Positions 683 to 24,509 of a DNA stretch of 24,892 nucleotides are shown in pieces. How positions within the stretch are numbered: position 1 is the stretch's first letter; each line of letters starts with the position of its first letter. A model generated the notes under the pieces. The model made no database searches. It saw only the letters and a program-made list of their open reading frames with translations, and was not told the DNA's origin. The DNA comes from Candidatus Altiarchaeales archaeon (GTDB lineage Archaea; Altiarchaeota; Altiarchaeia; IMC4; QMZM01). The DNA lies in assembly GCA_003663115.1 (NCBI GenBank), contig QMZJ01000001.1:1-24892 (forward strand), written 5' to 3'. The position numbers and the translations under genes were made by a program.

Positions 683-2104
683 ATGCCCATCACCTACTTT
701 GATGCAAATACATGTATAGATTACACGGAGAACCAATACTTCGTAAAGAGATTAGAACCGGATTCCTTTCTAATAACCACAGAACACGGAGCCTGGGTTG
801 TTCTGAATAAAAGGGAATATGACCTTCTGAGATTAAATCAATTGCATAAAGACCCAAATCTGTTTAATACGTTAGAGTATAAGGGGATAATAGTCACGGA
901 GAGGAACATAGGCCATATAGTGAACATATACAGGTTAAGAAAAGATTACCTCTTTAAAGGGGTGAGCCTCCATATAGTCGCCGTGACATCAAAATGCAAT
1001 CATAGATGTCCATATTGTTATACGGGATTACAAAAAAACGGGAAGGATATGGACGAAGATACGGCAAAGGCCGTTGTGGATTTCATATTCCAGAGCCCCA
1101 GTCCAGTGATAACAATAGAGATCTCCGGGGGGGAACCGTTAATGAATTTCCCAGTTGTTGAATTCATTATAGAATATTCCAAGAAACTAAATAAAAAATT
1201 CGGGAGGGATTTGATATATATACTGGTGACAAACCTCACCCCGATGGATGAAGACATCTTAAAGTATCTGATTAAGAACAATGTATCGATATCTACATCA
1301 TTAGATGGACCAAAAGAGGTACATGACAAAAATAGGAAATATCTGAATGGCAGGAGTAGTTATGAAAAAACGGTTTACTGGATCGATGTGATAAAAAAAC
1401 AATACAAATATCCTGCACTGGGTGCTTTACCTGTAGTTACCAGACATTCATTGCCCTATGGAAAAGAGATAGTTGATGAATACATCAAACACGATCTCAA
1501 TTTTTTAAGGCTCAAATACATTTCACCAACGGGAAATGCACAAAAACGCTGGGATAAACTTGGTTATACGCCTGAGGAATACCTGGTTCTATGGAAAAAG
1601 GTTCTGGATTATATCCTCAAACTAAATGGTAAGGGCTTAGAATTCAGTGAGGGATTAACGACACTCATGCTGAAGAAGATCCTCCTAACTGTAGATCCAC
1701 TCTATGTAGATCTGAATATGCCCTGTGGTGCCGGGATAGGTCAGATCACATATGATGAAAAGGGTAACATTTATACATGTGATGAAGCGAGACCGTATGA
1801 TATCTTTAAGCTGGGCGTTGCAGATAAAAACAGGTACAAGGAGATCATAGCATCGAGGACTGTTACGAGCATGGTCGACATATCATCCGGCTATCCACTG
1901 ATGTGCGATTTCTGTGTGTGGAAACCATATTGTGGCGTATGTGGTGTCATATCATACGCACAGCAGGGGAATATAATACCAAAGCTACCACTCGATTTCA
2001 GATGCGCTATTCATAGGGGGATGTTTGAGCATATATTCAGAAAATTGCTCTTCTCAAAGGAAAAGACGATATTGATGAAATGGGCTAATATATCCATGTT
2101 CTAG
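683..2104 (+). CDS. hxsB: His-Xaa-Ser system radical SAM/SPASM maturase HxsB
   Basis: SLHIVAVTSKCNHRCPYC (CxxxCxxC), SGGEP, VTNL, STSLDGPKEVHDKNR, SPASM PCGAGIGQITYDEKGNIYTCDEAR and CDFCVWKPYCGVC...C. The CGAGIGQ...TCDE signature is typical of HxsB. Confidence 0.9.
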   Translation: MPITYFDANTCIDYTENQYFVKRLEPDSFLITTEHGAWVVLNKREYDLLRLNQLHKDPNLFNTLEYKGIIVTERNIGHIVNIYRLRKDYLFKGVSLHIVAVTSKCNHRCPYCYTGLQKNGKDMDEDTAKAVVDFIFQSPSPVITIEISGGEPLMNFPVVEFIIEYSKKLNKKFGRDLIYILVTNLTPMDEDILKYLIKNNVSISTSLDGPKEVHDKNRKYLNGRSSYEKTVYWIDVIKKQYKYPALGALPVVTRHSLPYGKEIVDEYIKHDLNFLRLKYISPTGNAQKRWDKLGYTPEEYLVLWKKVLDYILKLNGKGLEFSEGLTTLMLKKILLTVDPLYVDLNMPCGAGIGQITYDEKGNIYTCDEARPYDIFKLGVADKNRYKEIIASRTVTSMVDISSGYPLMCDFCVWKPYCGVCGVISYAQQGNIIPKLPLDFRCAIHRGMFEHIFRKLLFSKEKTILMKWANISMF

Positions 2105-2118
2105 AGTTTCTAGAGTTA

Positions 2119-2138
2119 CACATATATTTTTATACCAG
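2119..2138 (+). promoter_or_regulatory. Putative archaeal TATA-box promoter of the precursor gene
   Basis: CACATATATTTTTATACCAG. TTTTTATA at 2127-2134 is centred about 26 nt upstream of ATG 2157, compatible with a leaderless transcript. A similar motif occurs at 12612-12627. Confidence 0.45.
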
Positions 2139-2156
2139 AAACCCAATAATTTATAT

Positions 2157-2507
2157 ATGAAAAAGAAACTTCCGAAGATAAAGAAGGAGGTATGCTGTTT
2201 CTTGTCCGATGAGAGCGGGAGAATATCAAAGAAATCATTGATTGCAATAAGCTCTGTGATTGGGGGTATAGCAATATCCGGGCTATTTTCTGGCGCCATA
2301 CGATCCGTTAAGGCAGATGGGCCCTATGGTATCCGGGCTACCTGTAATCACACCAATAATATTGGTGCAGATTATGATCCAACGAGTTGTACAATTAAAG
2401 TCACCCATAATCTTAGTTTAAATAAACATTACAATTCTGGTGTACATATGATATCAGGTTGTACACACACCAATAATTGTGATGCTACAGATCCATGCAA
2501 TCCTTGA
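2157..2507 (+). CDS. Putative RiPP precursor (HxsA-like position), His/Asn/Cys-rich core
   Basis: 116 aa directly after hxsB. Basic leader MKKKLPKIKKEV..FLSDESGRISKKSL, hydrophobic stretch, VKA|D cleavage-like site. The 63-aa core has 5 His and 5 Cys, with CxHTNN twice. Confidence 0.75.
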   Translation: MKKKLPKIKKEVCCFLSDESGRISKKSLIAISSVIGGIAISGLFSGAIRSVKADGPYGIRATCNHTNNIGADYDPTSCTIKVTHNLSLNKHYNSGVHMISGCTHTNNCDATDPCNP

Positions 2508-9067: not shown

Positions 9068-9092
9068 GCAGAAAAATTAATTGATAACAGGT

Positions 9093-12000
9093 ATGAAAAA
9101 ATACATTAAATCGTTGGTTCTATTTGTTGCCCTGTTTTTGATTCTCCTCAGTTTAGGTAATGTCCATGCGCAGTGTGTAAGCCCAAGTGTCAATCCACCC
9201 TGTGATTGTGATGGTGATGGAAACAATAAGACCACTGGCGGTTGTACCTTCACTGTTCCGGACTGCGACGATGATGCTGATGGATTCGACACAGATGCTG
9301 ATCCCGTCAACTGTCCGGGCGGTACCGACTGCAATGACGCCGATGATGGCGTACATTCAACAATAACCTGTTACGATGACTGTGATGGCGATGGCTTTGG
9401 AGACCCTGCTACTGGATCGCCTGAATGTGTAATTGCATGTGGAGATGCGACAGCCTGTGGAAAACCCAGGGTAGCCGATAACACTGACTGCGACGATAGT
9501 GATGCTTCAGTTAATCCCGGGGCCGTCGAAGTTTATTGTAACTGCAAGGATGACGATTGTAATGCGGGAACCCCGGATGGACATGATGGCGATGGAGACG
9601 GGTATGACATCTGTGGCCCCGCCGACATTTGTAATCCAGATGGCAAGTTAGCAGACTGCAACGATAGTGATGCTTCAGTTAATCCCGGGGCAGCCGAGGT
9701 TCCGTGTAACTGCAAGGATGACGATTGTAATGCGGGAACCTTAGATACACCTCCCGATGCCGACGGTGACGGTTATGACATCTGTGATCCTTCAGATCCC
9801 TGTGATGGGGATGCCAATGTATCGGATTGCGACGACACCAATGGAAATATCTATCCCAATGCTATAGAGCAATGCGATGGTATAGACAACAACTGCCCAG
9901 GGGATCCCGGGTTTGGACAATGCGATGAGGGCTGCGATGACGATGACGACGATTATTGTGATTGGACAATGGCTTATATCGCTCACGCTCTAAACACCTG
10001 TTTAGCCAACTACGGGCCAGGCTTCTGCGGGGCAAACCCTGACAGCCAATGCGAATGCGATAAACCAAACGACTGCAGAGATAATGATGCAAATGTACAC
10101 CCACCGGACATGGGACTTGAGAATGACACGAGTGCCTGGCCTAATCCTAATATCTGTGGTGGAGACAATACCGGTGACGGTATCCCAGATTGTTGTGATG
10201 GGATAGACAATGACTGCGATCTTACTGCGGATGAGGGTTGTCCCATGCCGTATCCGAATATTAGAGTGTGGGAGCGAGATACTGGTGTGGTTGTTATTCC
10301 CTCACAACCAATGGATATCTGTATTCCTGTGGGTGGGGCAAAGACAGAGTGCTATTATAATATTCGTGGAGACCCCAACTTTAAGAAAGAGGGTAACTTT
10401 ACAATAAATGTAACGTGGATGGCACCGGTTAATAAGAGCGTAGAAAAAAATTTTACGGTAAATCACGATGATGATCAGATGTCTTGCGAGTGTTTTTATG
10501 CCGCTGATTGTAGGGGTATGTCGTGTTGGCTCGGGGGCAGTTTGGGCAGTGATTGGGATAAGGGCAATCCCAATATAGAAAAATGGTGCTGTGGCGATGA
10601 TCCCGATGAGCACTATGTTGGGGGTACTGATGGGACATTCGCGTGCTGTGACAACAAGAATACAACATCTATGGTTGATCTTGGGGGAGATGAGTGCGTA
10701 ATTGGTGGTGTATGTCAGGATCGATTGGTTGGTCCGGATGAGGATGGTACTCCCGCACTTTGTGATGGAATAGATAATGACTGCGATGGAAAGGTGGATG
10801 AGAACTGTGGGTGCGATTCCTCCAAGCACTCGTGCGACACAAATACAAGCTGTCCAAACTTTCGCTGTAACGACAGTTATGGGCATTCAAAATCCTGCTG
10901 GAGGGTCGGTGGAGATTCCCACCCGATCGGAGCAACGGCGTGTTGTGGAGAGAATGCTACATTTCCAAATACGCCGGGGGAGTATTATATCTGGAATCCG
11001 TGTGATGGAACCGATGCGTGCTGTGATCAAGCAGGTGAGTGCGTTCTCAGGGGTGTATGTATGAATTACGTACCACAACCAGAGACGAATTTTCCGTGCG
11101 ATTTCATCGATAATGACTGCGACTGCCTGATAGATGAGGATTATGACCAGGACCATGACAGCGTTTCGACATGTGCTGGAGACTGTAACGATACCAATCC
11201 AGGTATTTATCCCGGGGCCCCAGAGATATGCGGCGATGGGATAGATCAGGATTGCGATGGAGAGGACATAGAATGTGGAAAACCCGAGGAGATAACCCTT
11301 GGGAATCTATGCAGGCTGGTTTATGATACATTATATCTACTTATTTATGCCGCGGTGGCGATAACAGTGCTATTGATGGTTATAGGGGGGATCAAGCTCA
11401 TGGGTGCAGAAGATCCGGAGGGGGCATCTAATGCCAAAGGTATGATAAAGAATGCGGTAATTGGTTTAATTCTTGTCTTTGCCCTGGCCGGGATTGGTCA
11501 CATGTTCGTTCCGGAATGCGCCCCATTGCCCGGAACTGGCTATCATCCACCCTTCCGTTTTGGTGAGCCCCCACCACTGTCAGTAAGGATTTTGAAACCA
11601 CAGGATGGAGAATTTTTTGAAGCAGGCGAGAATGTACTTTATGATTCCCTGATACTCGGAGGTTCACCACCGTATATGTACGTCTGGGACTTCGGCGATG
11701 GAACGCCCACGATTTATGGGACATGTGCCGCCGCGGCCTGTCCATGCCCAACGATACATAATTATACCAAGGGAGTATACACAGTAAGTGTGGTAGTTAC
11801 AGACAGCGCCGGTAGAAAGGCATGGGATGAGGTGGAAATTCTGGTTGACATGATAATTGCGGAAATAGATTCACCAGAGGAGGGATTCATAGGTATATTT
11901 GGGGATCCGATAGACTTCAACGGAACGGTTAAGGGCGGAAAACCACCATATACCTATGAATGGACATCGGACAAAGATTCTCCACCGCCGATGGGGGTCA

Positions 12001-12587
12001 CAGAAGACTTACTGGGTTATGCTGGATTATCTATAAATGAACACGTAATCACATTCACGGTTACAGATAGCAAAGGTAGAACGGCTTCTGATAGTGTCTT
12101 TGTAGAGATCCTAACAAATGTTCCAACGATATCCTCATCCTTTGGGATTGATACTGCTCAGAGTTGCTGGGAGGATAGCTGGTGGGAGGAGGATCAAACC
12201 TCTTTCATGTTCAATGTAACCCCCGCAAAATTGATTCCAGCGGGAGACAATTTAGTGATAGATGTGAGGGTTGTAGAAATGGGCGATTGCACGGGAGATT
12301 GGATCCCAATGGTAGACTGCTGTACCGGGGATGTGAATAGCAAATCCATGTCTTTTGCTGGGCCCATACCCGCTGGTACACCCGTGGAATGGGCATTTAT
12401 CGACTTCTGCAAAAAGGCCAAGAAATTGGAGATAAGAATCAGTACCAGTACAGATAAGTGGACATTCTGCGCTTGCTGTGATGTCGAAAATCCATCGGGA
12501 AGTTGTCCAGGCAGGGGTGATCCACCACACGATTTCCATGAGTGTAGTGTAGAACTTGGACCTTGTTCTGTACTATCCTGCGATTAA
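9093..12587 (+). CDS. Large secreted Cys/Asp-rich surface protein: MopE-type repeats + VirB2/T4SS-pilin-like TM hairpin + 2 PKD + Cys-rich C-terminal domain (1164 aa)
   Basis: Signal peptide ...GNVHA|QC. About 7 DC(D/N)DxxxxxxPGAxExCDGxDN(D/N)CDG-type repeats and two CCG(D/E)..CC..CVxxGVC repeats. Hairpin LLIYAAVAITVLLMVIGGIKLMGAEDPEGASNAKGMIKNAVIGLILVFAL (about 11305-11500). PKD motifs GGSPPYMYVWDFGDG/VTDSAG and GGKPPYTYEW/VTDSKG. Confidence 0.85.
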   Translation: MKKYIKSLVLFVALFLILLSLGNVHAQCVSPSVNPPCDCDGDGNNKTTGGCTFTVPDCDDDADGFDTDADPVNCPGGTDCNDADDGVHSTITCYDDCDGDGFGDPATGSPECVIACGDATACGKPRVADNTDCDDSDASVNPGAVEVYCNCKDDDCNAGTPDGHDGDGDGYDICGPADICNPDGKLADCNDSDASVNPGAAEVPCNCKDDDCNAGTLDTPPDADGDGYDICDPSDPCDGDANVSDCDDTNGNIYPNAIEQCDGIDNNCPGDPGFGQCDEGCDDDDDDYCDWTMAYIAHALNTCLANYGPGFCGANPDSQCECDKPNDCRDNDANVHPPDMGLENDTSAWPNPNICGGDNTGDGIPDCCDGIDNDCDLTADEGCPMPYPNIRVWERDTGVVVIPSQPMDICIPVGGAKTECYYNIRGDPNFKKEGNFTINVTWMAPVNKSVEKNFTVNHDDDQMSCECFYAADCRGMSCWLGGSLGSDWDKGNPNIEKWCCGDDPDEHYVGGTDGTFACCDNKNTTSMVDLGGDECVIGGVCQDRLVGPDEDGTPALCDGIDNDCDGKVDENCGCDSSKHSCDTNTSCPNFRCNDSYGHSKSCWRVGGDSHPIGATACCGENATFPNTPGEYYIWNPCDGTDACCDQAGECVLRGVCMNYVPQPETNFPCDFIDNDCDCLIDEDYDQDHDSVSTCAGDCNDTNPGIYPGAPEICGDGIDQDCDGEDIECGKPEEITLGNLCRLVYDTLYLLIYAAVAITVLLMVIGGIKLMGAEDPEGASNAKGMIKNAVIGLILVFALAGIGHMFVPECAPLPGTGYHPPFRFGEPPPLSVRILKPQDGEFFEAGENVLYDSLILGGSPPYMYVWDFGDGTPTIYGTCAAAACPCPTIHNYTKGVYTVSVVVTDSAGRKAWDEVEILVDMIIAEIDSPEEGFIGIFGDPIDFNGTVKGGKPPYTYEWTSDKDSPPPMGVTEDLLGYAGLSINEHVITFTVTDSKGRTASDSVFVEILTNVPTISSSFGIDTAQSCWEDSWWEEDQTSFMFNVTPAKLIPAGDNLVIDVRVVEMGDCTGDWIPMVDCCTGDVNSKSMSFAGPIPAGTPVEWAFIDFCKKAKKLEIRISTSTDKWTFCACCDVENPSGSCPGRGDPPHDFHECSVELGPCSVLSCD
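9486..9740 (+). repeat. Recent intragenic duplication, 168-bp period
   Basis: 9486-9572 vs 9654-9740 are 80/87 identical by manual alignment, including exact 31-bp (9493/9661) and 36-bp (9537/9705) blocks. Confidence 0.9.
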
Positions 12588-12611
12588 TCTAAGAGTCATT
12601 TTTAGAGAGGC

Positions 12612-12638
12612 CACATATTTATACCAGTATTTTAAATA
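12612..12638 (+). promoter_or_regulatory. Putative TATA promoter of the membrane-protein array
   Basis: CACATATTTATACCAG (12612-12627) plus TTTAAATA (12631-12638) in the only sizeable gap before the five-gene array. Confidence 0.45.
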
Positions 12639-12654
12639 ACCTTTATGAAGAGAG

Positions 12655-13890
12655 ATGAGGCTCAATAAAGCAGAAATTCTCGCAATAGCATTAATCGTGT
12701 TGATCCTGAGCGGAACCGCATCCTCCGAGGCTCCCTGGGAATGGGTGTATAGTCATACCGTGGGCTGGGTGATAGATCAGATCAAGAGCATACCCGTGCG
12801 TTTCAGAGATTGGTTCATGAATGCCGTGATAGTTAATATCCAGAAGATACTGGGTTTATTAAAGGATATAATTATGTGGAACCCAGATCCAGACGATATT
12901 AAGCCCATGGTAGATGATTTTATGGAGATCCTGATACCGGTTTATGCGATGATAATAATCATTCTGGGGATTTATATAATATTTATATCGACCACCCCGG
13001 CTGGGAGGGCGAGGGCAAAGTCCATATTCTGGAAGATATTGTTGAGTATGGTTCTGGTTTCATTATCACTTGAGATATTTAAGATACTTTTAGGTATTTC
13101 CGAGGCACTGGCACTGAGGATGCTGGCTGGTACCATAACCACGGATTTCCCACAATTTGAGGGATTGCGCCTGATGAATCCAGCAACAGTTTTCTTCCTC
13201 CTTATAGGTCTTTGCATTATACTCATCATCACGGCTATTGTCACGGCAATTAGGTGTCTCATCGTGTTACTGGCCTGTGCAATATTCCCGTTCACGCTGT
13301 TCCTGTACTTCTTTGAGTTCACGAAGGATATAGGCTCCAAGCTTCTCAGATATTCCATAGCTGCAATATTTACTCAACCCGTTCAGGCATTGATGCTGGC
13401 AATAACCATAATTTCGATGGATTCGGTCGGTATGCAAAATGCATCCTTTAGCGTGACTATCGCCCATATATTCCTAGTTAGTGGGGGCACCATCATGATC
13501 GCTCTGGCTCCGTTGATAATGCTGGGACTTATGAAGTGGATAGGTGGCGCCCTTGCGGGTATCGGGATAGTAGTTTCATTCGTACATCCTGTACTGGGTA
13601 GTGCAATGGTTGCTGCTGGGTCCATAGCTGCTGGCATGGGTCCGGGAGGATTGATTGCTGGCGGAACCGCCTACGGGCTCAGTAAAACTTATATGCAGGC
13701 AGCTGGAATCAGAACCAGAGGAATGGAGCGCAGGGCGAGAAAACGCATGGAAAAGAGGGAGAAAAAGGAAGAGAAGAGAAGGAAAAAGGTGATGAAGCAA
13801 CACAGACCATTCAGTGATTTTGATAGGTCTTGGAAACCACCAGAAGCTACCCAATCATCAGACGAATCAACAGAGAATAATCAACGATAA
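12655..13890 (+). CDS. VirB6/TrbL/CedA-like polytopic membrane protein, paralogue 1
   Basis: Signal peptide, WNPDPDDIKP, pilin-like hairpin (LGIYIIFISTTPAGRARAKSIFWKILLSMVLV), CAIFPFTLFLYFFEFTK, QPVQALMLAI, APL..LMKWIGG, Gly/Ala-rich helices, 60-aa R/K/E tail. Confidence 0.7.
   Translation: MRLNKAEILAIALIVLILSGTASSEAPWEWVYSHTVGWVIDQIKSIPVRFRDWFMNAVIVNIQKILGLLKDIIMWNPDPDDIKPMVDDFMEILIPVYAMIIIILGIYIIFISTTPAGRARAKSIFWKILLSMVLVSLSLEIFKILLGISEALALRMLAGTITTDFPQFEGLRLMNPATVFFLLIGLCIILIITAIVTAIRCLIVLLACAIFPFTLFLYFFEFTKDIGSKLLRYSIAAIFTQPVQALMLAITIISMDSVGMQNASFSVTIAHIFLVSGGTIMIALAPLIMLGLMKWIGGALAGIGIVVSFVHPVLGSAMVAAGSIAAGMGPGGLIAGGTAYGLSKTYMQAAGIRTRGMERRARKRMEKREKKEEKRRKKVMKQHRPFSDFDRSWKPPEATQSSDESTENNQR
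13042..13088 (+). repeat. 47-bp exact repeat shared with 14257-14303
   Basis: TTGAGTATGGTTCTGGTTTCATTATCACTTGAGATATTTAAGATACT in paralogues 1 and 2 (offset 1215). Confidence 0.9.
13275..13353 (+). repeat. 79-bp exact repeat shared with 14490-14568
   Basis: CTGTGCAATATTCCCGTTCACG...CTTCTCAGATAT is identical in paralogues 1 and 2 (offset 1215). The sub-block TTCCTGTACTTCTTTGAGTTCACGA is also in paralogue 3 (about 16000-16024). Confidence 0.9.
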
Positions 13891-13908
13891 GTCGGAAAAA
13901 TGCAAAAA
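13857..13908 (+). repeat. 52-bp exact direct repeat, copy 1 (gene end + spacer + next gene start)
   Basis: ATCAGACGAATCAACAGAGAATAATCAACGATAAGTCGGAAAAATGCAAAAA, identical to 15294-15345. Confidence 0.95.
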
Positions 13909-15327
13909 TTTAGAATGACGCGGATAATTATTGGAATAACATTGACTGTGTTAGCCCTGAGTGGAATTGCATCCTCCGGCTGGGTAGAAGATCAGATCAT
14001 AAAGATACCCGAGCATTTCGCAAGGTTTATTTTGGATATGATGATCCACCATATCAAGGGGATGCTGGTCTGGGTAAAAGATATGCTTATGTGGAACCCA
14101 GATCCAGACGATATTAAGCCCATAGTAGATGATTCTATAGAGATCCTGATACCGATTTATGTGATGATAATAACCCTCACCGGCATATATGTATTATTCC
14201 TATCGATCTCCCCGGCTGGGAGGGCGAGAGCAAAGTCCATGCTCTGGAACTTAATATTGAGTATGGTTCTGGTTTCATTATCACTTGAGATATTTAAGAT
14301 ACTCCTCAATATTTCAGGTGTATTAACTCGAAGAATAATAGCAGGCATCGTAACCACTAACCTCTCACAACTTATAGGATTGAGTGAGATGAATCCATGG
14401 ATGCTTTTCTTCCTGTATATATTTATTATTCCCGTACTCTTCTGTGCAGTTCTTGCCGTAGCGCTTAGATACATTATTGTATTGATACTCTGTGCAATAT
14501 TCCCGTTCACGCTGTTCCTGTACTTCTTTGAGTTCACGAAGGATATAGGCTCCAAGCTTCTCAGATATACCATGGCTGCCATATATACCCAGGTTGTTCA
14601 GGCATTGATGCTGGCAATAACCGTGATCTCGATCAATTCGGTTGTTGTAACAGGTTTATCTACCAACGCAAATATTATCTACGGATTATTAATCGTTGCG
14701 GGGAGTCTTATGATCGCTCTGGCGCCGTTAATGATGATGGGTATCCTGAAATGGGTGGGTGGTGCCGTTGCAGGTATTGGAATGATCCTTTCCTTTAGAT
14801 ATCCGATGATCGGCGGTGCAATGGTAACCGCAGGTGGAGTAGCTGCTGGTATGGGTCCAGGGGGGCTGATTGCCGGCGGAACTGCATATGGGCTCGGCAA
14901 GGCTTACATGAGGGCATCACCGGTTAGGCAACAGAAAATAGAACGTAGGAGAGAGTGGCGCGAGGAAAATAAAGGAAGGGGCAGGGGGATCAAAGACTAT
15001 TTCAGGAGGAGAGGTAGAGCAGCTAAGGAGTATTTCACTGGTGGGAAAGCCAGGGGTGCAGGCAGATCCATGGAAGCGCAAAGATCCGATATCGATGCCA
15101 TGCTCAGAGCTAAGGATGAGGAGGGCTACATTCTGACGAAAAAATATGGAGTAAGAAGGCACGGATTAATAGAGCCAGGTGAAGAATCCTCTGGATGGGG
15201 TTTATTCAGACGAAGAAGTGGCAGTCAGGTGGGCAGCAAAGGAGAGACGGGTACTGGAAAGGGCAGCTCAATAGGTAACAAAGGCACTACAAAATCAGAC
15301 GAATCAACAGAGAATAATCAACGATAA
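13900..15327 (+). CDS. VirB6/TrbL/CedA-like membrane protein, paralogue 2
   Basis: Same core motifs as paralogue 1. R/G-rich tail of about 140 aa ending in the same SDESTENNQR. Confidence 0.7.
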   Translation: MQKFRMTRIIIGITLTVLALSGIASSGWVEDQIIKIPEHFARFILDMMIHHIKGMLVWVKDMLMWNPDPDDIKPIVDDSIEILIPIYVMIITLTGIYVLFLSISPAGRARAKSMLWNLILSMVLVSLSLEIFKILLNISGVLTRRIIAGIVTTNLSQLIGLSEMNPWMLFFLYIFIIPVLFCAVLAVALRYIIVLILCAIFPFTLFLYFFEFTKDIGSKLLRYTMAAIYTQVVQALMLAITVISINSVVVTGLSTNANIIYGLLIVAGSLMIALAPLMMMGILKWVGGAVAGIGMILSFRYPMIGGAMVTAGGVAAGMGPGGLIAGGTAYGLGKAYMRASPVRQQKIERRREWREENKGRGRGIKDYFRRRGRAAKEYFTGGKARGAGRSMEAQRSDIDAMLRAKDEEGYILTKKYGVRRHGLIEPGEESSGWGLFRRRSGSQVGSKGETGTGKGSSIGNKGTTKSDESTENNQR

Positions 15328-15345
15328 GTCGGAAAAATGCAAAAA
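15294..15345 (+). repeat. 52-bp exact direct repeat, copy 2
   Basis: Identical to 13857-13908 (period 1437 bp). Confidence 0.95.
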
Positions 15346-18300
15346 CTTAGGATAACACGAAGGGGAAAGATCCTCATTGCTGTAATCGCGTTATTGCTCA
15401 TTAGCGGTAGTGTAACAGCTTGGCAGGTATGCAAATATGGCAGTGAGGAACACGGATGCTCATTGGATCCCAGATCATGGCCGGGGTGTATATTCGGGGT
15501 ATTTATTGATATCGGTAACTGTGTCATGATGTTCTTTATCTCTCTGATGACCGAGTTTATCCTGATGAATCCGGATATAAACGAATTCAAACCCTTTGTT
15601 AATGATATCGTCTCGATTCTATTTCCGATATACGTCATAGCGATAATCATTACCGGTATCTATATAATCTTTCTGTCCACCAGCCCCGAGTCCAGGGCGC
15701 GGGCAAAGTTGATGCTCATCAGGTTGATAATGGGTATGGCTATGGTAACAACCTCATTGAGTATTTACGAGTTACTTCTCAATCTATCCGAAGCTATAGC
15801 GGGAAGAATCCTGTCCGGATGGATCCTTGGCGGTGGCGGTGGCGGTCTTGCTATATTGGCTACTCTCGTGGTTGTTTCAGTTATACTTTTTTTCATATCC
15901 GCATGGATCTTGCCAATGCTTGCTGTAATAGCCCTGATATCTATCGCCGCCAGGTTCTTTTTGGTCTCACTTATGGCCGTTCTCTTTCCCCTGACCCTAT
16001 TCCTGTACTTCTTTGAGTTCACGAGGAGTATTGGACAAAATATGATGAGATATACCCTGATGGCAATATTCACACAACCCGTTCAGGCATTGATGCTGGT
16101 TATAATGATTATCGGGCTTAATAATATAAGCACTACGGGCGACATTCTAGGGAAAATAGTCAGTCTGGTGATGGGGATTGCCGGTTTCTTGATGGTTATC
16201 TTCGCGCCATTATTAATGCTGAAGCTAATGAGCTGGGTGGGTGGCGCCGTGGCCGGCGCGGGAATGATACTGGCATACAAAAGACCGTGGGTGGGTGCAT
16301 TATTGGTGTCTGCTGGGGGTATAGGCGCTGGCATGGGCCCGGAGGCAATGGCGGCTGGAGGCGCCGTCTATACGCTGGGTCTTGCATATCAGAGGAAGTT
16401 TCCATCGAGGAGAAGACTTGACAGGACGAGAAGGTTGGTGAGAAAGGGCTGGGAAAGGGTAACTGGGAAGGTACGTGAAGAGGCCCCGGTTGTGGGCGCA
16501 TGGTTGGGTAGAAGACGTTATATCGGGAGACCCCTTACGATCGCCCATAAGCTCGGCAAAGAGCATGTCGGTCGATCGATCGGTAAAACATACGGGATAC
16601 TTAAAAACGTTAAGAGACGTGCGGGACATACAGTCCGCGTGGTTAGAAAGCACTGGAAGTTCATTGGGAAATCTCTGTTCATACCCGGATACTGGATATA
16701 TGGAGGCAGTAAATTCATGGTGAGACGGATGGGTATTTCCATAGGGAGCAGGTTGAAAGCGCACAGGCTTAACAGACATATAGAGAACATAAGAAGAGCC
16801 AGTACGAGGTCAGAGGTATGGAATGAATTAAGGAAAAGTGGTGTGGATGAGAGAGGGGTCAGACAGAGATGGAGCGATTGGTGGAAGAGACGCGAAAAGT
16901 TCAGGGAGAGATTTGAAAAAGCGAAGAGGGGGCGTATCACAGCGAAGCGCTATATAAAAGATCATAAGAAAAAAATCAGAGAGATTGACAGAAAGATCAA
17001 GAACCTAGAGAAGACGGGCTCTATAATTAAAGAGGAGGGAGGCTATGGATGGAGGGGCAGGTATAATAAGATCAGAGATCAGATCGACAAACTGAAAGAT
17101 AGGCGTGATAGATTAGTTGGTAATCTAGAAAGACATGAAAAGAATTATAGGAAATATAAGGATGAGATCAAGAAACTGAGAGTCAAAATAAAGAAGAGTG
17201 AAGGCATGGAGGGGCGGGAGATCCGAAGGCTCAAGGAGAAATATCCCATCAAGAAAGAGGATGCGGATAAACTACAGGATGAACTGTACAGAGAGTTTAA
17301 GAAACTGCGCGGTGAAAAGTATATGGACACAGCCACGGCAAAGAATCGGGCGCGGGACCTCGTTAATAGGTACATTGCGGAGAATGACTTCAGGGTTGTT
17401 GAGGAGGGGTTACGGGAGGCAGGCATAGATGAAAAGAGGATAACCGAGTTAGGGGATAGATACGACAGGCGTGGTCTGGATAGATTGAAAAGGGAGGCAG
17501 AGGAGAGTATCAAATTTAAGAGGGCCATCGAACATGATCTTGATTCCGCAACTACCTTTGAGGAGGTGGAAGAGATTAACGAGAGACTCGGCGACCGAGG
17601 TCTCTCAAAGGAAGAATTTGAAAGGTTGAAAGAGAGGGAGATGGAAAGAAGAGAGAAGGAAGTCGAAAAAATCGAAAAAGAGGAAGCGAAGGATTGGGCG
17701 AGACGGAAAGTAGCGCGAGAGGGCATATCCAGCGAAGATGAGGCTTGGGCGATTGAAGAGATGAGAGAAGATGGGATAAACCCAGAAAAACTCAGCTCGA
17801 AAGAACTTAATGAAGAGATCAGGGCAAGGGTAATTGAGAGAGAGGCCCATCATGAAGCCGAGAGGATAATAAACGAAGAGATGGTAGTAAGTGATAGATT
17901 CACGGAAGATGTGAAGAATTCGCTCAGGGCAAATGACGCTATGGAAAGGCTCAAATACGCCAGAAACCCCGAGGAGGTAAAGGCGATCGCGAGGGAATTT
18001 GGCGTTTCGGAAAGAGATATACATAGGATAGGTGCAGAGTATATGGCCCCCGAGGAGGGAATAGAGCGCAAACCGAGTGCGACCGGGAGGGATCTGGATA
18101 CGTTCAAGGAGAGCGCAAAAAAGGCCATCGAAGAGAAAAAGCATCAAATAGAAAATAAACTTGGAACCCTCGATAAGATCAAGAGATATGGTCCTCATGT
18201 AGGTTTGGCTCTTACCATTCCAGGTTATGTACCCTACATGGCAGGCCGTAGCCTGTATGGTGCAATGACAACGGCAAGATCTCTTATTGCTCTACAGACG

Positions 18301-19380
18301 ATTAATAGATTAAATTACCAGGACGCCGAGAGATATAAGAAATTGATAAAAGCAATGAAGAGGGGTGGAGCTACTGAGAGGGAAGCCAGAATGTTAATTG
18401 GTGATGAACGGGTTGTTAGCAAGGACGATTTTGAGAACCTTAAAAAGAGGGCATCAGACTTCATAATCGCAAAGAAATTTGCTGATAGACACTATCCCGG
18501 GTTTACAAGGGAATTCTTCAAGCCCTTTAAGCCGAGCAGTACCATAAAAAAGGCAATAAAAAGGGGCAAGAAATACGGCGTGTCTGAGAGCAAGTTGGCG
18601 AGAATAGAAAAGTACTACGAGAGAGAAATGGCGAGAATAGAGAAAAAGTACGCTGTACCCAAGGGCGCAAAGTTGTCCAGGGAGAGATTGAGGGATCTCA
18701 GGAAAGAAAAGAAACTACTCATCGATAGGATAAATAAACAGATCAATAATGAGATAATAGAGAGTGGTGGCTTTTCCAGGCACCTGAGGAGAGTGGGCAA
18801 CAAATATCTGTTACTCGATAGTGAAATAAGGGACATAGATGATCACTTTAAAGCCACCAGGGCCAGAGAGATAAGTAGATTAGAGAGAGCTGAGGAGGGA
18901 GCTATGTTTAAACTCAGACCAGAGGAGAGGATCGAAAGAATGAATGAGATAAATGCAAAATCCCTTGTAAATACACACAGATCGATGGCCGAGATAGTTG
19001 GGGTCGAGGGCTATAATGAGATGACCGCGGAGGAGCATGCAGATTACGCCAAGCTCGGTTTGGCCCCTGAAGGGGGTGAAAAGGGAGAATTGCTATCTGA
19101 AGAAGAGATTAAAGAAGAGTCATTGAAGCATAGTGTTGATTTGGGTGGCAATCTTCATGCAAGAATGCTGCTCGAGGATTACATGGGTATTGGCCCCAGA
19201 CCGAGTGAGTTCTATCACGGAATAGGACCCGAAACTAAAGAAGAAAGAGAGAAAGAAAGAGAAAGAAAGGAGATGTCGCCTCTATATACAGCTGCGACAA
19301 CGGAGACGGAGACGCTTGCAGAGGCAGTGATTGAGGGCCTGGATGAACTGAAAAAATCAAAAAAGGAAAAATCAGAATGA
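15337..19380 (+). CDS. VirB6/CedA-like membrane protein, paralogue 3, with a highly charged helical C-terminal extension of about 1000 aa
   Basis: Core (MNPDINEFKP, STSPESRARAK, FPLTLFLYFFEFT, QPVQALML, APL..LMSWVGG) ends near 16395. The rest is R/K/E-rich coiled-coil/helical sequence. Confidence 0.72.
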   Translation: MQKLRITRRGKILIAVIALLLISGSVTAWQVCKYGSEEHGCSLDPRSWPGCIFGVFIDIGNCVMMFFISLMTEFILMNPDINEFKPFVNDIVSILFPIYVIAIIITGIYIIFLSTSPESRARAKLMLIRLIMGMAMVTTSLSIYELLLNLSEAIAGRILSGWILGGGGGGLAILATLVVVSVILFFISAWILPMLAVIALISIAARFFLVSLMAVLFPLTLFLYFFEFTRSIGQNMMRYTLMAIFTQPVQALMLVIMIIGLNNISTTGDILGKIVSLVMGIAGFLMVIFAPLLMLKLMSWVGGAVAGAGMILAYKRPWVGALLVSAGGIGAGMGPEAMAAGGAVYTLGLAYQRKFPSRRRLDRTRRLVRKGWERVTGKVREEAPVVGAWLGRRRYIGRPLTIAHKLGKEHVGRSIGKTYGILKNVKRRAGHTVRVVRKHWKFIGKSLFIPGYWIYGGSKFMVRRMGISIGSRLKAHRLNRHIENIRRASTRSEVWNELRKSGVDERGVRQRWSDWWKRREKFRERFEKAKRGRITAKRYIKDHKKKIREIDRKIKNLEKTGSIIKEEGGYGWRGRYNKIRDQIDKLKDRRDRLVGNLERHEKNYRKYKDEIKKLRVKIKKSEGMEGREIRRLKEKYPIKKEDADKLQDELYREFKKLRGEKYMDTATAKNRARDLVNRYIAENDFRVVEEGLREAGIDEKRITELGDRYDRRGLDRLKREAEESIKFKRAIEHDLDSATTFEEVEEINERLGDRGLSKEEFERLKEREMERREKEVEKIEKEEAKDWARRKVAREGISSEDEAWAIEEMREDGINPEKLSSKELNEEIRARVIEREAHHEAERIINEEMVVSDRFTEDVKNSLRANDAMERLKYARNPEEVKAIAREFGVSERDIHRIGAEYMAPEEGIERKPSATGRDLDTFKESAKKAIEEKKHQIENKLGTLDKIKRYGPHVGLALTIPGYVPYMAGRSLYGAMTTARSLIALQTINRLNYQDAERYKKLIKAMKRGGATEREARMLIGDERVVSKDDFENLKKRASDFIIAKKFADRHYPGFTREFFKPFKPSSTIKKAIKRGKKYGVSESKLARIEKYYEREMARIEKKYAVPKGAKLSRERLRDLRKEKKLLIDRINKQINNEIIESGGFSRHLRRVGNKYLLLDSEIRDIDDHFKATRAREISRLERAEEGAMFKLRPEERIERMNEINAKSLVNTHRSMAEIVGVEGYNEMTAEEHADYAKLGLAPEGGEKGELLSEEEIKEESLKHSVDLGGNLHARMLLEDYMGIGPRPSEFYHGIGPETKEEREKERERKEMSPLYTAATTETETLAEAVIEGLDELKKSKKEKSE

Positions 19381-20474
19381 AAAATAGATTAACAATAATC
19401 GGGATAATTGCAATAATGCTCCTGTCGGGAACTGGAGAGGTGTTTGCAGACTGCTGGAGTGACCCGGGACCTTGCATACTGCAAGCAATCATAGATTTTC
19501 TTCTTCCGGACCCCGGCGATGTCGCAAACGCTCTGAAGCCAATGATTCTCACAAATCCCGATCCGTCAGATGTTGCCCCCCTCATGAATTCTTACCTCGA
19601 CCTGTTGCACCCCATTTTTGTCCTGTCGATAATAATACTCGGTTTCTACCTTATCTTCATGTCCGGTTCCCCCGGCGGAAGGGCAGCAGCCAAGAACAGG
19701 TTCTGGAAACTTATATTGACTATGATCCTGGTTTCATTATCATTGGAAATATTCAAGATACTTCTTGGTATATCTGAGGGTATTACTGCAAAGGTACTTG
19801 GTGGCGTTACAGACGGTTCAATCGAGTTCAGTGCGATAGAGACCATTACGTTTGTACTCGTACAGTTGTTTCTTTGGTTTATATATATATGGATTCTGAT
19901 ATCTATCGGCCTGCGGTATATCCTGGTATTGATATGTGCCGCATTGTTTCCGATAACGATATTCCTCTACCTCTTTGAAATGCCGATCATAGGGGCCATG
20001 GGTAGGGAAATGGGTGCAAAGATGTGGAGATGGACACTCGCGGTGATATTTGCGCAGGTTATTCAGGGGGTTATGTTGGCTATAACTGTCATCTCCTTCG
20101 GCAATATAAACGAGGCGGCGGGCTGGGGCAAACTCGGAGCGGCTTTCATTGGCATTGCGGGCTTTGTATTGATCGCACTCGCGCCCCTGATGATGGTCGG
20201 GATTCTAAAATGGATCGGTGGTGCAATGATGGGGATAGGAATGGCTGTATCCCTTGCTAATCCTGCGCTGGGCTTTGCCATGACTGCTATGGGTGGGCTG
20301 ATGATGGGTCAGGGTCCCGCATCGGCATTGATGGCGGCCGGAGGGGCCGCCGGGATGGGTTTTGCTCTGAGGAAGGGCCAAGAAGCTGCTGGCTTGAGGA
20401 TGAAAGAAAAAATGAAAGAGATGGAGAGAAAACGACGACAAATGAGACTTGGTGATGATTTTAAAGATGAATAA
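19377..20474 (+). CDS. VirB6/CedA-like membrane protein, paralogue 4
   Basis: ATGA overlap with paralogue 3. TNPDPSDVAP, SGSPGGRAAAK, LVSLSLEIFKILLGISE, FPITIFLYLFE, APLMMVGILKWIGG. Short basic tail. Confidence 0.7.
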   Translation: MKNRLTIIGIIAIMLLSGTGEVFADCWSDPGPCILQAIIDFLLPDPGDVANALKPMILTNPDPSDVAPLMNSYLDLLHPIFVLSIIILGFYLIFMSGSPGGRAAAKNRFWKLILTMILVSLSLEIFKILLGISEGITAKVLGGVTDGSIEFSAIETITFVLVQLFLWFIYIWILISIGLRYILVLICAALFPITIFLYLFEMPIIGAMGREMGAKMWRWTLAVIFAQVIQGVMLAITVISFGNINEAAGWGKLGAAFIGIAGFVLIALAPLMMVGILKWIGGAMMGIGMAVSLANPALGFAMTAMGGLMMGQGPASALMAAGGAAGMGFALRKGQEAAGLRMKEKMKEMERKRRQMRLGDDFKDE

Positions 20475-21948
20475 GAAACTAAAAATTATATCAATAGTGG
20501 GTGTGTTACTCATCGGATCGATACCCGTATCGGCAGTTGGTTTAGAGGAGTTGATAGGTTGGGCATTGAGCTGGATTGAAGGTGTTATAAATAACTTCTT
20601 TAACGAGTTGCTTGGAAAGGTAATTGATCTACTTACATGGAACCCCGATATCACCATAGTCAAACCACTTATGGATGACTTTATTGAATTGGCCACCCCG
20701 CTCTATATAATCGCGTTTATACTTATCGGGATCTACTTCTTCTTCCTCTCCGAATCGCCCAAGGGGAGGGCGAGAGCGAGATCGGCACTGTTAAAATTAC
20801 TGCTCAGTCTGGCATTTGTGATAACTGCAACCACAATATATCAGTTTCTTCTGGACCTCTCCGAGTTATTGGTTAACTTCGTTATGAGTCTCGTGGAGAT
20901 AGACCTGAGCATAATCGGTATTTTAGCTCTGTATTCTGTTGCTCCCCTCTTTGCAATGGCAATAGGTTTTGTTCTCTTAACCCTATTGGCTTTTTTTACC
21001 TTGAGATACTTACTACTTCTGATTATGGCGGCAATATTCCCGTTAACGATATTCTTCTTTTTCTTTGAGTTTACTAAAGACTATGGTAGACAGATAATGA
21101 GATACACGCTCATGCTCATCTTCGTTCCGGTTCTTCAGGCGATCATCTTGGTATTTATAATAAGCACCATGAATACCATAGGAAGTGTAAGGGGCTGGGG
21201 TAATCTTGCAGGAATTGCGATAACGATAGGTGGATTTTTAATGATGATAGCAGCTCCATGGATGACCTTGGGGCTTTTAAAGTGGATCGGTGGTGTGCTT
21301 TCTTTTGCCGCTTTCACACAACTGGCGGCCGGCAGAATGAATCTTGCGGTTTTATTGTTCTTTAGCAGCGGTCTTATGATGGGTGAAGGTGCGGGAGCTG
21401 TCCCATTAGCCGCAACCTTCTGGTTTATCGGTCAATTGGAGCACAAAAGTGAGGAGGTAGGAGAGAGGTTATACAGAGCACGAAAGGAACGTATTAGACC
21501 CCGAGGACATGGTGGGGAGGAGGGACATGGAGAAGGTGGCAGGGGAGGAGTACGTGGAGAACCACATATAAGACCAAGAAAGCCGGGTGCCGTCGAGGCT
21601 GGAGGAATGACGCGAAGAGGCAAAACGAGGTTAGAAGATATAATACTGGCGGGCGATAGATTTATGGAGGAGGGTTATAGACTGAAGAATGAGGGGCGCC
21701 CGGGATACAAAGAGAAATTTAAAATAGCCAGAGATAGATATGAAAAAGCCATGGAACTCTCTGAGAGGGCTACAGAGGTGTTATCGGATCGCAAAAAGGC
21801 AGAGCTCTATGCCAAGATGGGTGAGGCATACGAGCAATTAGACCGTACAGATATAGCGAGGGATAGATATAAAGAAGCCATGAGATTGGATCCGAAAAAT
21901 CCCAAATACGCCGAAAGATTAGCGGATATACTCTCCAAGAGGGGATAA
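20467..21948 (+). CDS. VirB6/CedA-like membrane protein, paralogue 5, with C-terminal TPR
   Basis: ATG 20467 overlaps the previous stop. WNPDITIVKP, SESPKGRARAR, FPLTIFFFFFEFTK, AAPW..LLKWIGG. TPR AELYAKMGEAYEQLDRTDIARDRYKEAMRLDPKNP. Confidence 0.72.
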   Translation: MNKKLKIISIVGVLLIGSIPVSAVGLEELIGWALSWIEGVINNFFNELLGKVIDLLTWNPDITIVKPLMDDFIELATPLYIIAFILIGIYFFFLSESPKGRARARSALLKLLLSLAFVITATTIYQFLLDLSELLVNFVMSLVEIDLSIIGILALYSVAPLFAMAIGFVLLTLLAFFTLRYLLLLIMAAIFPLTIFFFFFEFTKDYGRQIMRYTLMLIFVPVLQAIILVFIISTMNTIGSVRGWGNLAGIAITIGGFLMMIAAPWMTLGLLKWIGGVLSFAAFTQLAAGRMNLAVLLFFSSGLMMGEGAGAVPLAATFWFIGQLEHKSEEVGERLYRARKERIRPRGHGGEEGHGEGGRGGVRGEPHIRPRKPGAVEAGGMTRRGKTRLEDIILAGDRFMEEGYRLKNEGRPGYKEKFKIARDRYEKAMELSERATEVLSDRKKAELYAKMGEAYEQLDRTDIARDRYKEAMRLDPKNPKYAERLADILSKRG

Positions 21949-22446: not shown

Positions 22447-24489
22447 TTACGAAAAATGGTTAAAGTTACGGGTTAATTTCGCTATCCCCAGTTCAATTTC
22501 AATTAATCTTTCTTGATAGTCTTTCATTATAGCTTTATATATGTCTTCCCTTACTTTTCCCTGCCGATACCTCTCTTCAAGGATCTCAATCTTGTGTTCA
22601 AGTTCATCTTTCTCGTGTTGTAATTCCACTATATCCTTCTCTTCTTTGGCCGTTTTCCCTTCCTCAGTATCCTCTTCCCATTCGCCGGATACGATTCTCT
22701 TCACGGTTATATAATCTTGACCCTCTTCTTCATCTCTCTGTTTATCTTCAGGTTCTCTTTGCCCGAATTTCCTATTGAGTCTTGTTACTGTGTCAAAGAG
22801 ATCCTTATACAGTTCCTTTTCCCCACTTTCTTTGAGAAGTTTCTCAGCGGATATTGACCATGGAATCAATGTAGATTCCTGTTCCTCAATTGCCTTTAGA
22901 AAATCATCCATGGTGATACTTCTTTCAGATGACCCCGATACCGCTTTTTTCCAGGGGATACTGGCTGCATTATTGCAGATTTCATCGATATCCGCAGCGG
23001 AGTAACCCTCTGTTAATTCAGCCAGTTTCCTGAAGTCTACATCGGTAGATAATGGTCTTCCTCGTGTACAAATTTTTAGGATCTCAATTCTAGAGTCTAA
23101 ATCTGGTGGGGGGATAAAGATTTGTTTACTGAACCTTCCAGACCTTCGCAATGAAGGATCTAGGTCCCATGGTGTGTCTGTTGCTGCAATAACCAATACA
23201 TCCTCACTCAGTCTCTCCACCCCACTCATATCCATCAGAAATTGATTCAATATCCTCTTCTTAGAACCCTCAAGTAAACCCTTGCGACTGCAAAGAGCAT
23301 CGATCTCATCAAAGAATATTATTGCCGGTGCATTTTTGCTGGCGCGTTCAAAAACGCTATGAATTCTCTCCGCTCCATCACCCTTTCCGTTCATAATGTC
23401 GCTGATATTCACATTGAAAAAAGACACACCACACTCGGTGACAGTAGCTCTTGCGATGTGCGTCTTTCCACATCCAGGAGGACCATACAGTAATATCCCC
23501 CCTCCCGCTTTCCTCTTGAATTTCTTAGATAGATCGGGGTGTAGGAATGGATATATTATTGCCTCTGTGATCTCCTTTTTTGCATTTTCTAATCCACCCA
23601 CATCCGAAAATGATATTGTTGACTTTTCAATGGGGATCGAATCCCCAGTATCAAATTCGGTGCCCAATGATATCGGTTTTAATTTAACTTCGGTTTCGTA
23701 GTTTCTCTTTACCTTCGGACTATTTTTGGGACATAGTGGAAAATATGAAACGGTCTCGGCATCCTTCCTTCCAACATGTTCGCATACCAGATAAGGCATA
23801 TACGTTATCTCTTCAAGCAGCACATCACAGTTAAATAGATACCTAATCACCCTCCCAATCTTCTCCAGAGAATATTCAATGCTATCTCTATCATATGAAT
23901 CATCGATCGTATCTACCACCTCTAAAAAAGAGGACAGATCGTATCGTTTATCTTCAAACTTTGGCAGATAACATGGGGATCTAACCCAATATCTTTCAAT
24001 CTCCCGTTCATCCATCGCAATTCTCAGTATGTTAAGTATCTTGTTATCCCTCGGTTCATAAACCGTAACAACACCACGTCTCACAAGCTCAAGTACGGTA
24101 TCTTGATCCAGTTCGTCATACTGTACACTGCCCCTATCCAGTATATAACTCAGGGTATTTAGCATCTGGGGCGTAAAGTCAATTACTCTCCTCAAAAGAT
24201 CTATTTTCTCTACCCGCGGTTTCGCGTGAAGAATTCCCACACAATGCGCGTAATACAGGTTTCCATGAGAGAGGTCAACATAAAGATGATTCCTTTTTAT
24301 ACGAGCCGTTGCCCTCTTGAACAAGATACCTTTATCAAAACCCTCTGTCTTTATGATTTCTAGTCTACCCAATGGCATGTATCTCTTATACAATTTCACA
24401 TTTGGATTATCCGAAGAGAATTTTATGATATTCTTCTCAAATTCTGCTGAAATTGCAAATGACGATGTATTTACCTTACTGATCTTCAT
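22447..24489 (-). CDS. Single-domain AAA+ ATPase (Vps4/CdvC/CDC48-related) with long N-terminal region and C-terminal coiled coil
   Basis: SFSDVGGLENAKKEITEAIIYP, Walker A GPPGCGKT, Walker B IIFFDEID, AATDTPWDLDPSLRRSGRFSKQIFIPPPD, lid TEGYSAADI, ITMDDFLKAI. ATG at 24489 (alternative GTG at 24498). Confidence 0.9.
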   Translation of the reverse strand: MKISKVNTSSFAISAEFEKNIIKFSSDNPNVKLYKRYMPLGRLEIIKTEGFDKGILFKRATARIKRNHLYVDLSHGNLYYAHCVGILHAKPRVEKIDLLRRVIDFTPQMLNTLSYILDRGSVQYDELDQDTVLELVRRGVVTVYEPRDNKILNILRIAMDEREIERYWVRSPCYLPKFEDKRYDLSSFLEVVDTIDDSYDRDSIEYSLEKIGRVIRYLFNCDVLLEEITYMPYLVCEHVGRKDAETVSYFPLCPKNSPKVKRNYETEVKLKPISLGTEFDTGDSIPIEKSTISFSDVGGLENAKKEITEAIIYPFLHPDLSKKFKRKAGGGILLYGPPGCGKTHIARATVTECGVSFFNVNISDIMNGKGDGAERIHSVFERASKNAPAIIFFDEIDALCSRKGLLEGSKKRILNQFLMDMSGVERLSEDVLVIAATDTPWDLDPSLRRSGRFSKQIFIPPPDLDSRIEILKICTRGRPLSTDVDFRKLAELTEGYSAADIDEICNNAASIPWKKAVSGSSERSITMDDFLKAIEEQESTLIPWSISAEKLLKESGEKELYKDLFDTVTRLNRKFGQREPEDKQRDEEEGQDYITVKRIVSGEWEEDTEEGKTAKEEKDIVELQHEKDELEHKIEILEERYRQGKVREDIYKAIMKDYQERLIEIELGIAKLTRNFNHFS

Positions 24490-24509
24490 TACAAACACGC
24501 AAGGATACG

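Follow-up and report, generated by a model that had tools for sequence, protein, structure and literature searches.

In the R388 type IV secretion system (T4SS), VirB6 forms a pentameric base that is the presumed site of VirB2 assembly (PMC9259494). A pilin-like N-terminus is a published trait of both CedA and VirB6 (PMC9905601). T4SS-like machines of Crenarchaeota import DNA (PMC9905601), and in Patescibacteria relaxase-less T4SS-like parts are essential for epibiotic growth (PMC12102498). Here we analyse five tandem genes of a Candidatus Altiarchaeales archaeon. Their products are probably membrane-platform subunits of the VirB6 family and would belong to a chromosomal pilus machine that resembles type IV secretion systems but is relaxase-less. 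The genes lie on contig C1 (QMZJ01000001.1). The window analysed is the whole of this contig (24.9 kb), and the assembly comprises 1.19 Mb in 165 contigs and is 84% complete. An original prediction, made from the letters of this stretch, had proposed an undescribed archaeal apparatus. We found no description of a T4SS-like system in Altiarchaeota in the open-access literature, and within that scope the claim holds.

The array and its shared core

Six intact, co-directional open reading frames (ORFs) on the + strand occupy positions 9081-21948 of the window. The first encodes an adhesin-pilin fusion, and the other five are paralogues that share a core of ~350 aa (33-60% identity). Alignment of the cores gave 39 invariant columns, among them N76-P77-D78, G105/Y107/F110/S112/P115/R118/A119/A121, F211-P212-x-T214-x-F216...F220-E221, Q244...L248 and A285-P286...W295-x-G297-G298. 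All the motifs named in the original prediction fall within these columns, and its picture of five tightly coupled paralogues with one core is borne out. Paralogues 1, 2 and 3 are each separated by 9 nt. Paralogues 3 and 4 overlap by 4 nt, and paralogues 4 and 5 by 8-26 nt, the exact value being set by the start of paralogue 5 (TTG 20449, ATG 20455 or ATG 20467). Each paralogue starts with a signal peptide and a long helix ending in NPD. A transmembrane hairpin that resembles VirB2 pilins and has a basic loop, GRARAK, comes next, followed by a helical domain like that of VirB6 and DotA. A search of all ORFs of the assembly with a hidden Markov model (HMM) of the core matched only the five array genes. 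The core family as a whole counts 620 representatives at 50% clustering (E<1e-3), and in its members the core invariably occupies the N-terminus or a position close to it, ahead of tails that measure between 0 and ~2,200 aa.

The adhesin upstream of the array starts with a signal peptide, continues with ~700 aa of Cys/Asp-rich MopE-type repeats, and ends in a VirB2-type pilin hairpin followed by PKD/Ig-like domains. Its Pfam matches are Cu-binding_MopE (1.5e-22), T4SS_pilin (29.1 bits, cut-off 26.6) and PKD (6e-7). Two hydrophobic segments were found, at aa 4-34 and aa 743-814, and the latter is a two-helix hairpin. It had been predicted that the adhesin contains the same type of hairpin as the paralogues; the T4SS_pilin match agrees with this, and the adhesin hairpin can be aligned with the small pilins of the genome as well as with the paralogue hairpins. 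The paralogue hairpins themselves stay below the Pfam cut-off for T4SS_pilin (PF18895): the protein scan gave E values of 0.005-0.013 for two paralogues, and all five match this family at E 2e-4 to 0.13 in the whole-genome scan. By these PF18895 matches and by its alignment with the genome's own pilins, the core has the pilin-like N-terminal hairpin of VirB6. Orthologues of the adhesin adjoin the array on its upstream side in three relatives (G021, G022 and G027).

None of the five paralogues matches a family at threshold in Pfam or NCBIfam. An AlphaFold2 model of the core, built with an alignment of 89 homologues, is all-helical and has a pLDDT of 92 and a pTM of 0.82. The best PDB candidates that Foldseek returned for this model were TrwI/VirB6 chains, and re-alignment of the candidates gave Z 10.7 for TrwI over 227 of 260 residues. 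In an exhaustive VIA-align search of 48,161 PDB clusters, Z>=8 was reached only by R388 TrwI/VirB6 (9.4, 214 aa) and Legionella DotA (9.3, 218 aa), the third-best chain being at Z 6.6. The search of AlphaFold DB clusters listed 30 matches, none with E above 4.3e-4, and 11 of these bear the name TrbL/VirB6 or type IV secretion system protein, with a best value of 1.6e-12. We rejected a transporter or permease identity of the core, as no such match appeared in the Pfam, NCBIfam or fold searches.

The sequence signals are weaker and point the same way. Among 89 diverse relatives, 27 match T4SS_pilin at the hairpin (best 1.8e-7) and 11 match TrbL at E<=0.01 (best 5e-5), and weak precomputed TrbL_3 (PF19590) matches exist for 8 of 27 close relatives. 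Three paralogues of the window match one and the same stretch of the TrbL (PF04610) profile, positions 94-211, with E values of 0.002-0.16. The best TrbL match of the genome itself is paralogue 5 (E 0.0019, 20872-21252). An hhalign comparison pairs the FP.T.F motif of the core with the GP.F motif of TrwI, in a register that we estimate to be roughly that of the structural match. The curated VirB6/TrbL models PF04610, TrbL_3 (PF19590) and TrbL_4 (PF19597) gave no core match at or above cut-off, and HMMER profile searches of PDB sequences with A1 and A2 returned nothing relevant. The fold, these weak but consistent sequence signals and the gene neighbourhood across the order support placing the five proteins as remote members of the VirB6 superfamily, outside the curated Pfam family. 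The VirB6/TrbL-like identity put forward in the original prediction is upheld to this extent.

It could be argued that the core has only a helical arrangement in common with VirB6 and acts apart from VirB4, for example as a pilin-derived envelope scaffold or an adhesin anchor. Such a role would suit the TrbL sequence matches, every one of which is below threshold, the moderate Z values, and an array whose immediate conserved partner is the adhesin and not VirB4. We nevertheless consider it quite improbable. The top two of the 48,161 structural matches, which lead all others by 2.7 Z units, are both subunits of a T4SS platform or protochannel, only a few kb separate family members from PrgI, VirB4 and pilin genes in many genomes of the order, and neither the core HMM nor a TrbL scan found another VirB6 candidate in the assembly.

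Motor and pilin genes

Contig C6 of the same assembly encodes a PrgI/VirB3-like protein (PrgI PF12666, 35.5 bits; cut-off 27), a VirB4-like ATPase, and at least five T4SS_pilin/TrbC proteins, among them a 100-aa VirB2-type pilin, an 898-aa pilin fusion and three more pilin fusions. Many different pilin fusions are encoded in the genome. The VirB4-like ATPase scores 319.1 bits against the CD1110 family, just under the cut-off of 325, and 264 bits against the Mycoplasma-ICE VirB4 family, and it matches the TraG P-loop at 1e-24. The pilin matches are Mycoplasma-ICE-like. We take the CD1110 and Mycoplasma-ICE VirB4 families to represent monoderm MPF-FATA-type systems. No VirB5 or VirB7-11 was recognised among the scanned genes of the locus.

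The VirB4 gene is apparently split (C6 94-3250). Over their N-terminal ~250 positions, the VirB4 models (Mycoplasma-ICE VirB4 2.2e-16, CD1110 2.7e-5) match a 290-aa ORF that is PrgI/VirB3-like as well, and the next ORF, of ~760-800 aa, matches the VirB4 model only from position 166 on.

A 30-kb contig of a relative is colinear with C6 from position 10493 to its end and continues directly with C1 from its first gene. By this colinearity C6 almost certainly adjoins the window, and VirB4 would then be ~25 kb from the adhesin, on its upstream side. Between the pilin cluster and the window's first gene there is a gene for an A24-type (prepilin/preflagellin) peptidase (C6 17337-18371, - strand). Peptidases of this type serve the processing of type IV pilins and archaellins, not of VirB2-type pilins.

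The original prediction called the system chromosomal and non-conjugative. The alternative, an integrated conjugative element or its remnant in place of a host machine, could draw on the G+C content, which is 0.44-0.485 over the adhesin and the array compared with 0.37-0.43 in the flanks, and on a VirB4 that resembles those of monoderm bacterial conjugative elements. The higher G+C, however, fits products rich in Gly, Ala and Cys. The gene order, including the flanking ATP-binding cassette (ABC) transporter and radical-SAM genes, is kept in other genera, and all 13 of the high-quality genomes that were searched have the core family. No relaxase of family PF03432 was found in the 84% of the genome represented by the assembly, other relaxase families lying outside the search. 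Nor was a tyrosine integrase found in the assembly (PF00589; the control was positive in 14/14 genomes), or a tRNA gene on C1 or C6. A conjugative element is thus very improbable, and the chromosomal, non-conjugative character fits the conserved synteny and these negative results.

A DNA importer of the Ced/Ted type deserves more weight. The VirB6-like proteins would then form an import pore for chromosomal DNA of neighbouring cells, used in repair. The minimal parts list is that of Ced and Ted, with a VirB2-like pilin, a VirB6-like protein and a VirB4-like ATPase, chromosomally encoded and with no relaxase found (PMC9905601), and the C6 VirB4 does match CedB (60.9 bits) and CedD (47.1 bits) weakly. 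The CedB score compares with a cut-off of 700 for that model and is far below the scores for CD1110 and Mycoplasma-ICE. The paralogues have no NCBIfam match at E<=1 in a library that includes CedB and CedD models, the presence of a CedA model being uncertain. The locus has no HerA, Rad50 or ParA genes, and the large adhesin domains on the pilins suggest attachment first. We regard an importer as unlikely. Of the VirB6/CedA-like character originally predicted, the VirB6 part stands, and no specific kinship with CedA emerged.

Two HerA genes do occur on other contigs. They encode paralogous 683-aa HerA/FtsK-type P-loop ATPases (C77 2238-4289 and C136 113-2164), each of which starts with a signal or anchor sequence and has a putative extracellular domain, and one of them adjoins a KaiC/RadA-like gene. 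Models of the type IV coupling protein match the HerA-type ATPases at the P-loop alone. The original prediction had named, as grounds for abandoning it, a core from another membrane family in a genome with no VirB4/HerA-type partner; the core searches and the C6 genes gave the opposite result.

Paralogue types and a proposed platform

The tails that follow the core are 66, 135, 992, 30 and 164 residues long in paralogues 1 to 5, and their content differs. The 992-residue tail of paralogue 3 contains 239 K/R and 185 D/E and has no family match in Pfam and no usable Atlas match. GC skew and AT skew are strongly positive along it, with peaks of 0.42 and 0.38 in the 17001-18000 bin. The tail of paralogue 5 matches TPR_14 (5.9e-6) and several other TPR families. 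The original claim that the tails are unrelated holds for length and content, with the exception that paralogues 1 and 2 both end in SDESTENNQR because a 66-nt repeat spans both of their downstream gene junctions. These two are also the closest pair of the array, with 60% protein identity and DNA that is 71-81% identical in blocks of 208-300 nt.

In a maximum-likelihood tree built from 32 cores of seven genomes, short arrays close to VirB4 are set apart from arrays of the window type. The latter resolve into four orthogroups, A-B-C-D (support 100/99-100), which occur in the same gene order in five genomes. A comprises positions 1 and 2, B has the long tail (orthologues of 893-2015 aa), C is tail-less, and D carries a TPR tail where scanned (the window and the JGI contig). 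Every complete array contains all four types, and B, C and D are single-copy. Type A forms a pair of closest relatives in three lineages, and G021 and G022, which belong to the lineage of the window, have one copy. Among the complete arrays examined, 11/13 have five genes and 2/13 have four. The best assemblies have arrays of 5+4(+1), 5+5 and 5+5 genes, and the genomes of one family (f6) have five genes in total, split 2+2+1. The organisation of the array as four ancient types in fixed order, in which a doubled type A gives five genes, is new here.

The core family occurs in 48/61 genomes of the phylum and the C6-type VirB4 in 45/61, both only in families f1-f6 of one order. As relatedness alone could give such a shared distribution, we attach more weight to gene position. 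In at least 15 genomes a core member lies 3-10 kb from VirB4 on one contig, and the distance is often 3-5 kb. In G026, of the same genus, and in G024, five short paralogues adjoin pilin, PrgI and VirB4 genes; those of G026 (contig C38, 8032-19082) encode 320-419 aa and stand directly upstream of the three. The window-type array and its flanking ABC permease were not found in G026, and the region of the present genome that corresponds to the VirB4-proximal array of G026 would fall past the start of C6. The nearest public loci are in two metagenome-assembled genomes labelled Candidatus Altiarchaeota and have the same order of ABC transporter, adhesin and 3-4 paralogues. Near-identical DNA was found in hydrothermal-vent and sediment metagenomes.

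The original prediction left it open whether the channel is hetero-oligomeric or interchangeable. If interchangeable, each paralogue would form a homo-oligomeric platform or substitute for another, giving alternative machines for different pilins and adhesins, or surface variation. The lineage-specific type A pairs in three lineages would agree with this, as would the shared DNA blocks of paralogues 1 and 2, where the junction repeat could delete or add a copy, the 3-18 core copies per genome with two arrays in some genomes, and the many pilin fusions. B, C and D, by contrast, are single-copy and ancient, and all complete arrays examined have them in one and the same order, which is the pattern of non-redundant parts, and the differences are concentrated in the basic, probably cytoplasmic tails and not in exposed loops. 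Interchangeable paralogues are therefore rather doubtful, and the tree favours the other half of the prediction, with fixed types. We think that types A to D, which differ mainly in their tails (none, short basic, ~1000 aa charged, TPR), are non-redundant and co-assemble in one mixed platform.

A mechanism for the VirB6-family platform can be proposed. Following cleavage of the signal peptide, the N-terminal helix would face outward. By the positive-inside rule, the basic GRARAK loop and the very basic starts of the tails should both be cytoplasmic, and the C-terminal tails probably are so throughout. In analogy with R388, the subunits might assemble at the membrane above a PrgI(VirB3)/VirB4 motor. 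The platform would then take VirB2-type pilins out of the membrane, both the small ones and adhesin-fused ones such as the 1168-aa protein, and these would polymerise into a decorated pilus for cell-cell or surface contact, possibly also serving as a conduit. The tails might act as cytoplasmic docking sites for the motor, regulators or cargo.

A more specific version is that the four types form an obligate hetero-pentameric VirB6 platform, an asymmetric counterpart of the homopentameric stalk base, with A used twice or present in two copies and with tail-specific docking positions. A mixed pentamer is attractive, if unproven, given the VirB6 pentamer of R388, the five RvhB6 proteins of Rickettsia and the five-gene arrays that are the rule here. 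We found no paper linking RvhB6 to a pentamer in the open-access literature searched, and we put the obligate pentamer forward only tentatively.

Several observations weigh against a VirB6-type platform of a T4SS-like machine at this locus. The Z values lie under ~13, and helical bundles can match by chance at Z 9-10. The TrbL cut-off of 25.9 bits is reached by no paralogue (17.2, 11.4 and 10.9 bits in the window) and by no relative (best 22.8-23.4); TrbL stays below cut-off in five further genomes too, so that no transitive chain leads to the curated family. The hhalign comparison of A2 with a 41-sequence TrwI-family alignment, which is narrow (51-92% identity), is weak (probability 2%, P 0.022, 55 columns). 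A complex prediction with the A, B, C and D cores (974 residues), whose chains were folded from single sequences, scored 0.00 with a chain pLDDT of ~55 and, unlike the other points, speaks neither for nor against. The array stands outside the VirB4 operon in this genome, ~25 kb away, with a cluster resembling those for ribosomally synthesised and post-translationally modified peptides and the ABC transporter between them. VirB4 was not found in two relatives, G021 and G022, although in G021 this looks like a contig break. No RNA run carries the array among the listed sequencing runs with matching DNA. Finally, nothing in the gene content of the locus points to cargo, and this content supports at most attachment, with or without exchange of DNA or protein.

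Downstream of the array, in convergent orientation, lies a gene for a CDC48/PAN-like AAA+ ATPase (Table 1), whose place in the system is uncertain. Its N-terminal ~280 aa form an unnamed domain family that was seen only in the same order, in 48/61 genomes, with five copies in this genome. Besides the window copy, the loci concerned are L018 3227-3935 and L037 5227-6990. One relative of this domain adjoins a small VirB2-type pilin gene on contig C121 of the same genome. A distant version is found just past VirB4 in several relatives, and the one copy of it that was scanned, in G024, is fused to Mrr_cat and PAP2. The domain family may be an accessory of the system. At the other end of the window (13-2507) there is a cluster of small-protein, radical-SAM and Cys/His-rich precursor genes. 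Three genomes have it in syntenic position on the upstream side of the array (counterparts at L026 5313-7258 and L033 8254-10762, with an HxsD-like match in a relative), and so it travels with the locus across genera. On the JGI contig (1.56 Mb; L026 20108 to end), the orthologous five-gene array is followed immediately by a called product of 26,652 residues, a giant ORF that the window lacks.

Table 1 Features of the adhesin, the array and its downstream neighbour (positions in the window).
Feature	Position	Strand	Basis or remark
Adhesin-pilin fusion, 1168 aa	9081..12587	+	likely start ATG 9093
Pilin hairpin within adhesin, aa 752-805	11331..11495	+	PF18895 (T4SS_pilin), 35.4 bits in whole-genome scan
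VirB6-like paralogue 1 (type A), 411 aa, short basic tail	12655..13890	+	core alignment, AlphaFold2 model, fold matches, orthogroup A
Junction repeat copy 1 (paralogue 1 end, 9-nt spacer, paralogue 2 start)	13857..13922	+	family D5, 66 nt
VirB6-like paralogue 2 (type A'), 475 aa	13900..15327	+	core alignment, tree
Junction repeat copy 2 (paralogue 2 end, 9-nt spacer, paralogue 3 start)	15294..15359	+	94% identical to copy 1
VirB6-like paralogue 3 (type B), 1347 aa, ~990-aa charged tail	15337..19380	+	core alignment, tree
VirB6-like paralogue 4 (type C), 365 aa, almost tail-less	19377..20474	+	core alignment, tree
VirB6-like paralogue 5 (type D), 499 aa, C-terminal TPR tail	20449..21948	+	core alignment, orthogroup D
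AAA+ ATPase, CDC48/PAN-like, single AAA domain, order-specific N-terminal domain	22447..24498	-	convergent to array

Comparison with known systems

Altiarchaeota are abundant carbon fixers of the subsurface and of vents. Relaxase-less T4SS-like machines are emerging as likely contact organs of small-genome uncultured microbes, and the present locus extends this picture to them. It also offers a natural experiment on VirB6, in which the platform subunit has diversified into four conserved types, each with its own tail and place in the gene order, while large adhesins are joined to the pilins. Should the types co-assemble, the result would be an asymmetric T4SS platform, of which we know no earlier case, and it would point to a way of interpreting the four or five VirB6 paralogues found in Rickettsiales, which have long lacked an explanation.

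The closest likeness of the core is to VirB6/TrbL proteins, namely TrwI of R388 (PDB 7O3V, 8RT9) and DotA (PDB 9NGY). They have the same helical platform fold over ~215-227 aligned residues, a proline-centred motif (FP.T.F in the core, GP.F in TrwI) that the weak hhalign match brings together, a pilin-like N-terminal hairpin, and the company of VirB4, VirB3 and VirB2-type genes. The core differs in that it remains below the Pfam threshold with ~9% identity to TrwI, has a hairpin recognised by the T4SS_pilin model itself, and adds a signal peptide and a long helix ending in NPD. There are four to five fixed paralogues in place of one gene, and the host is an archaeon.

The Rvh system of Rickettsiales (PMC2653234) likewise has tandem VirB6 paralogues, RvhB6a-e, with a conserved core and unrelated large extensions, and both systems are chromosomal and not devoted to plasmid transfer. 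The archaeal expansion is, however, independent. Its extensions are C-terminal alone and probably cytoplasmic, its proteins do not pass Pfam TrbL whereas those of Rickettsia do, and its partners are of the monoderm kind (PrgI and a CD1110-type VirB4).

By sequence, VirB4 and PrgI would place the machine with the monoderm-type T4SS represented in Patescibacteria (VirB4, PrgI, VirB6 and VirB2-pilin arrays, no relaxase; PMC12102498). Both belong to uncultured hosts with small genomes, are chromosomal, combine PrgI with a VirB4 closest to the monoderm conjugation families, and have several VirB2/T4SS_pilin genes. In the archaeal host, VirB6 is multiplied in fixed arrays besides the pilins, many pilins are fused to large Cys-rich/Ig-like adhesin domains, and the apparently split VirB4 has its N-domain on the PrgI protein.

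Ced of Sulfolobales and Ted of Thermoproteales (PMC9905601) are, like the present system, archaeal and chromosomal, and consist of a VirB2-like pilin, a VirB6-like protein with a pilin-like N-terminus and a VirB4-like ATPase. We detected no sequence link to CedA in a comparison made without a dedicated CedA profile, and, with 61 bits against a cut-off of 700, the VirB4 does not qualify as a CedB equivalog. A single CedA or TedA there contrasts with four to five tailed paralogues here, where the pilins are also fused to adhesins; DNA import is the known activity of Ced and Ted, and for the Altiarchaeota array a decorated contact pilus on a VirB6-family platform is the reading that we prefer.

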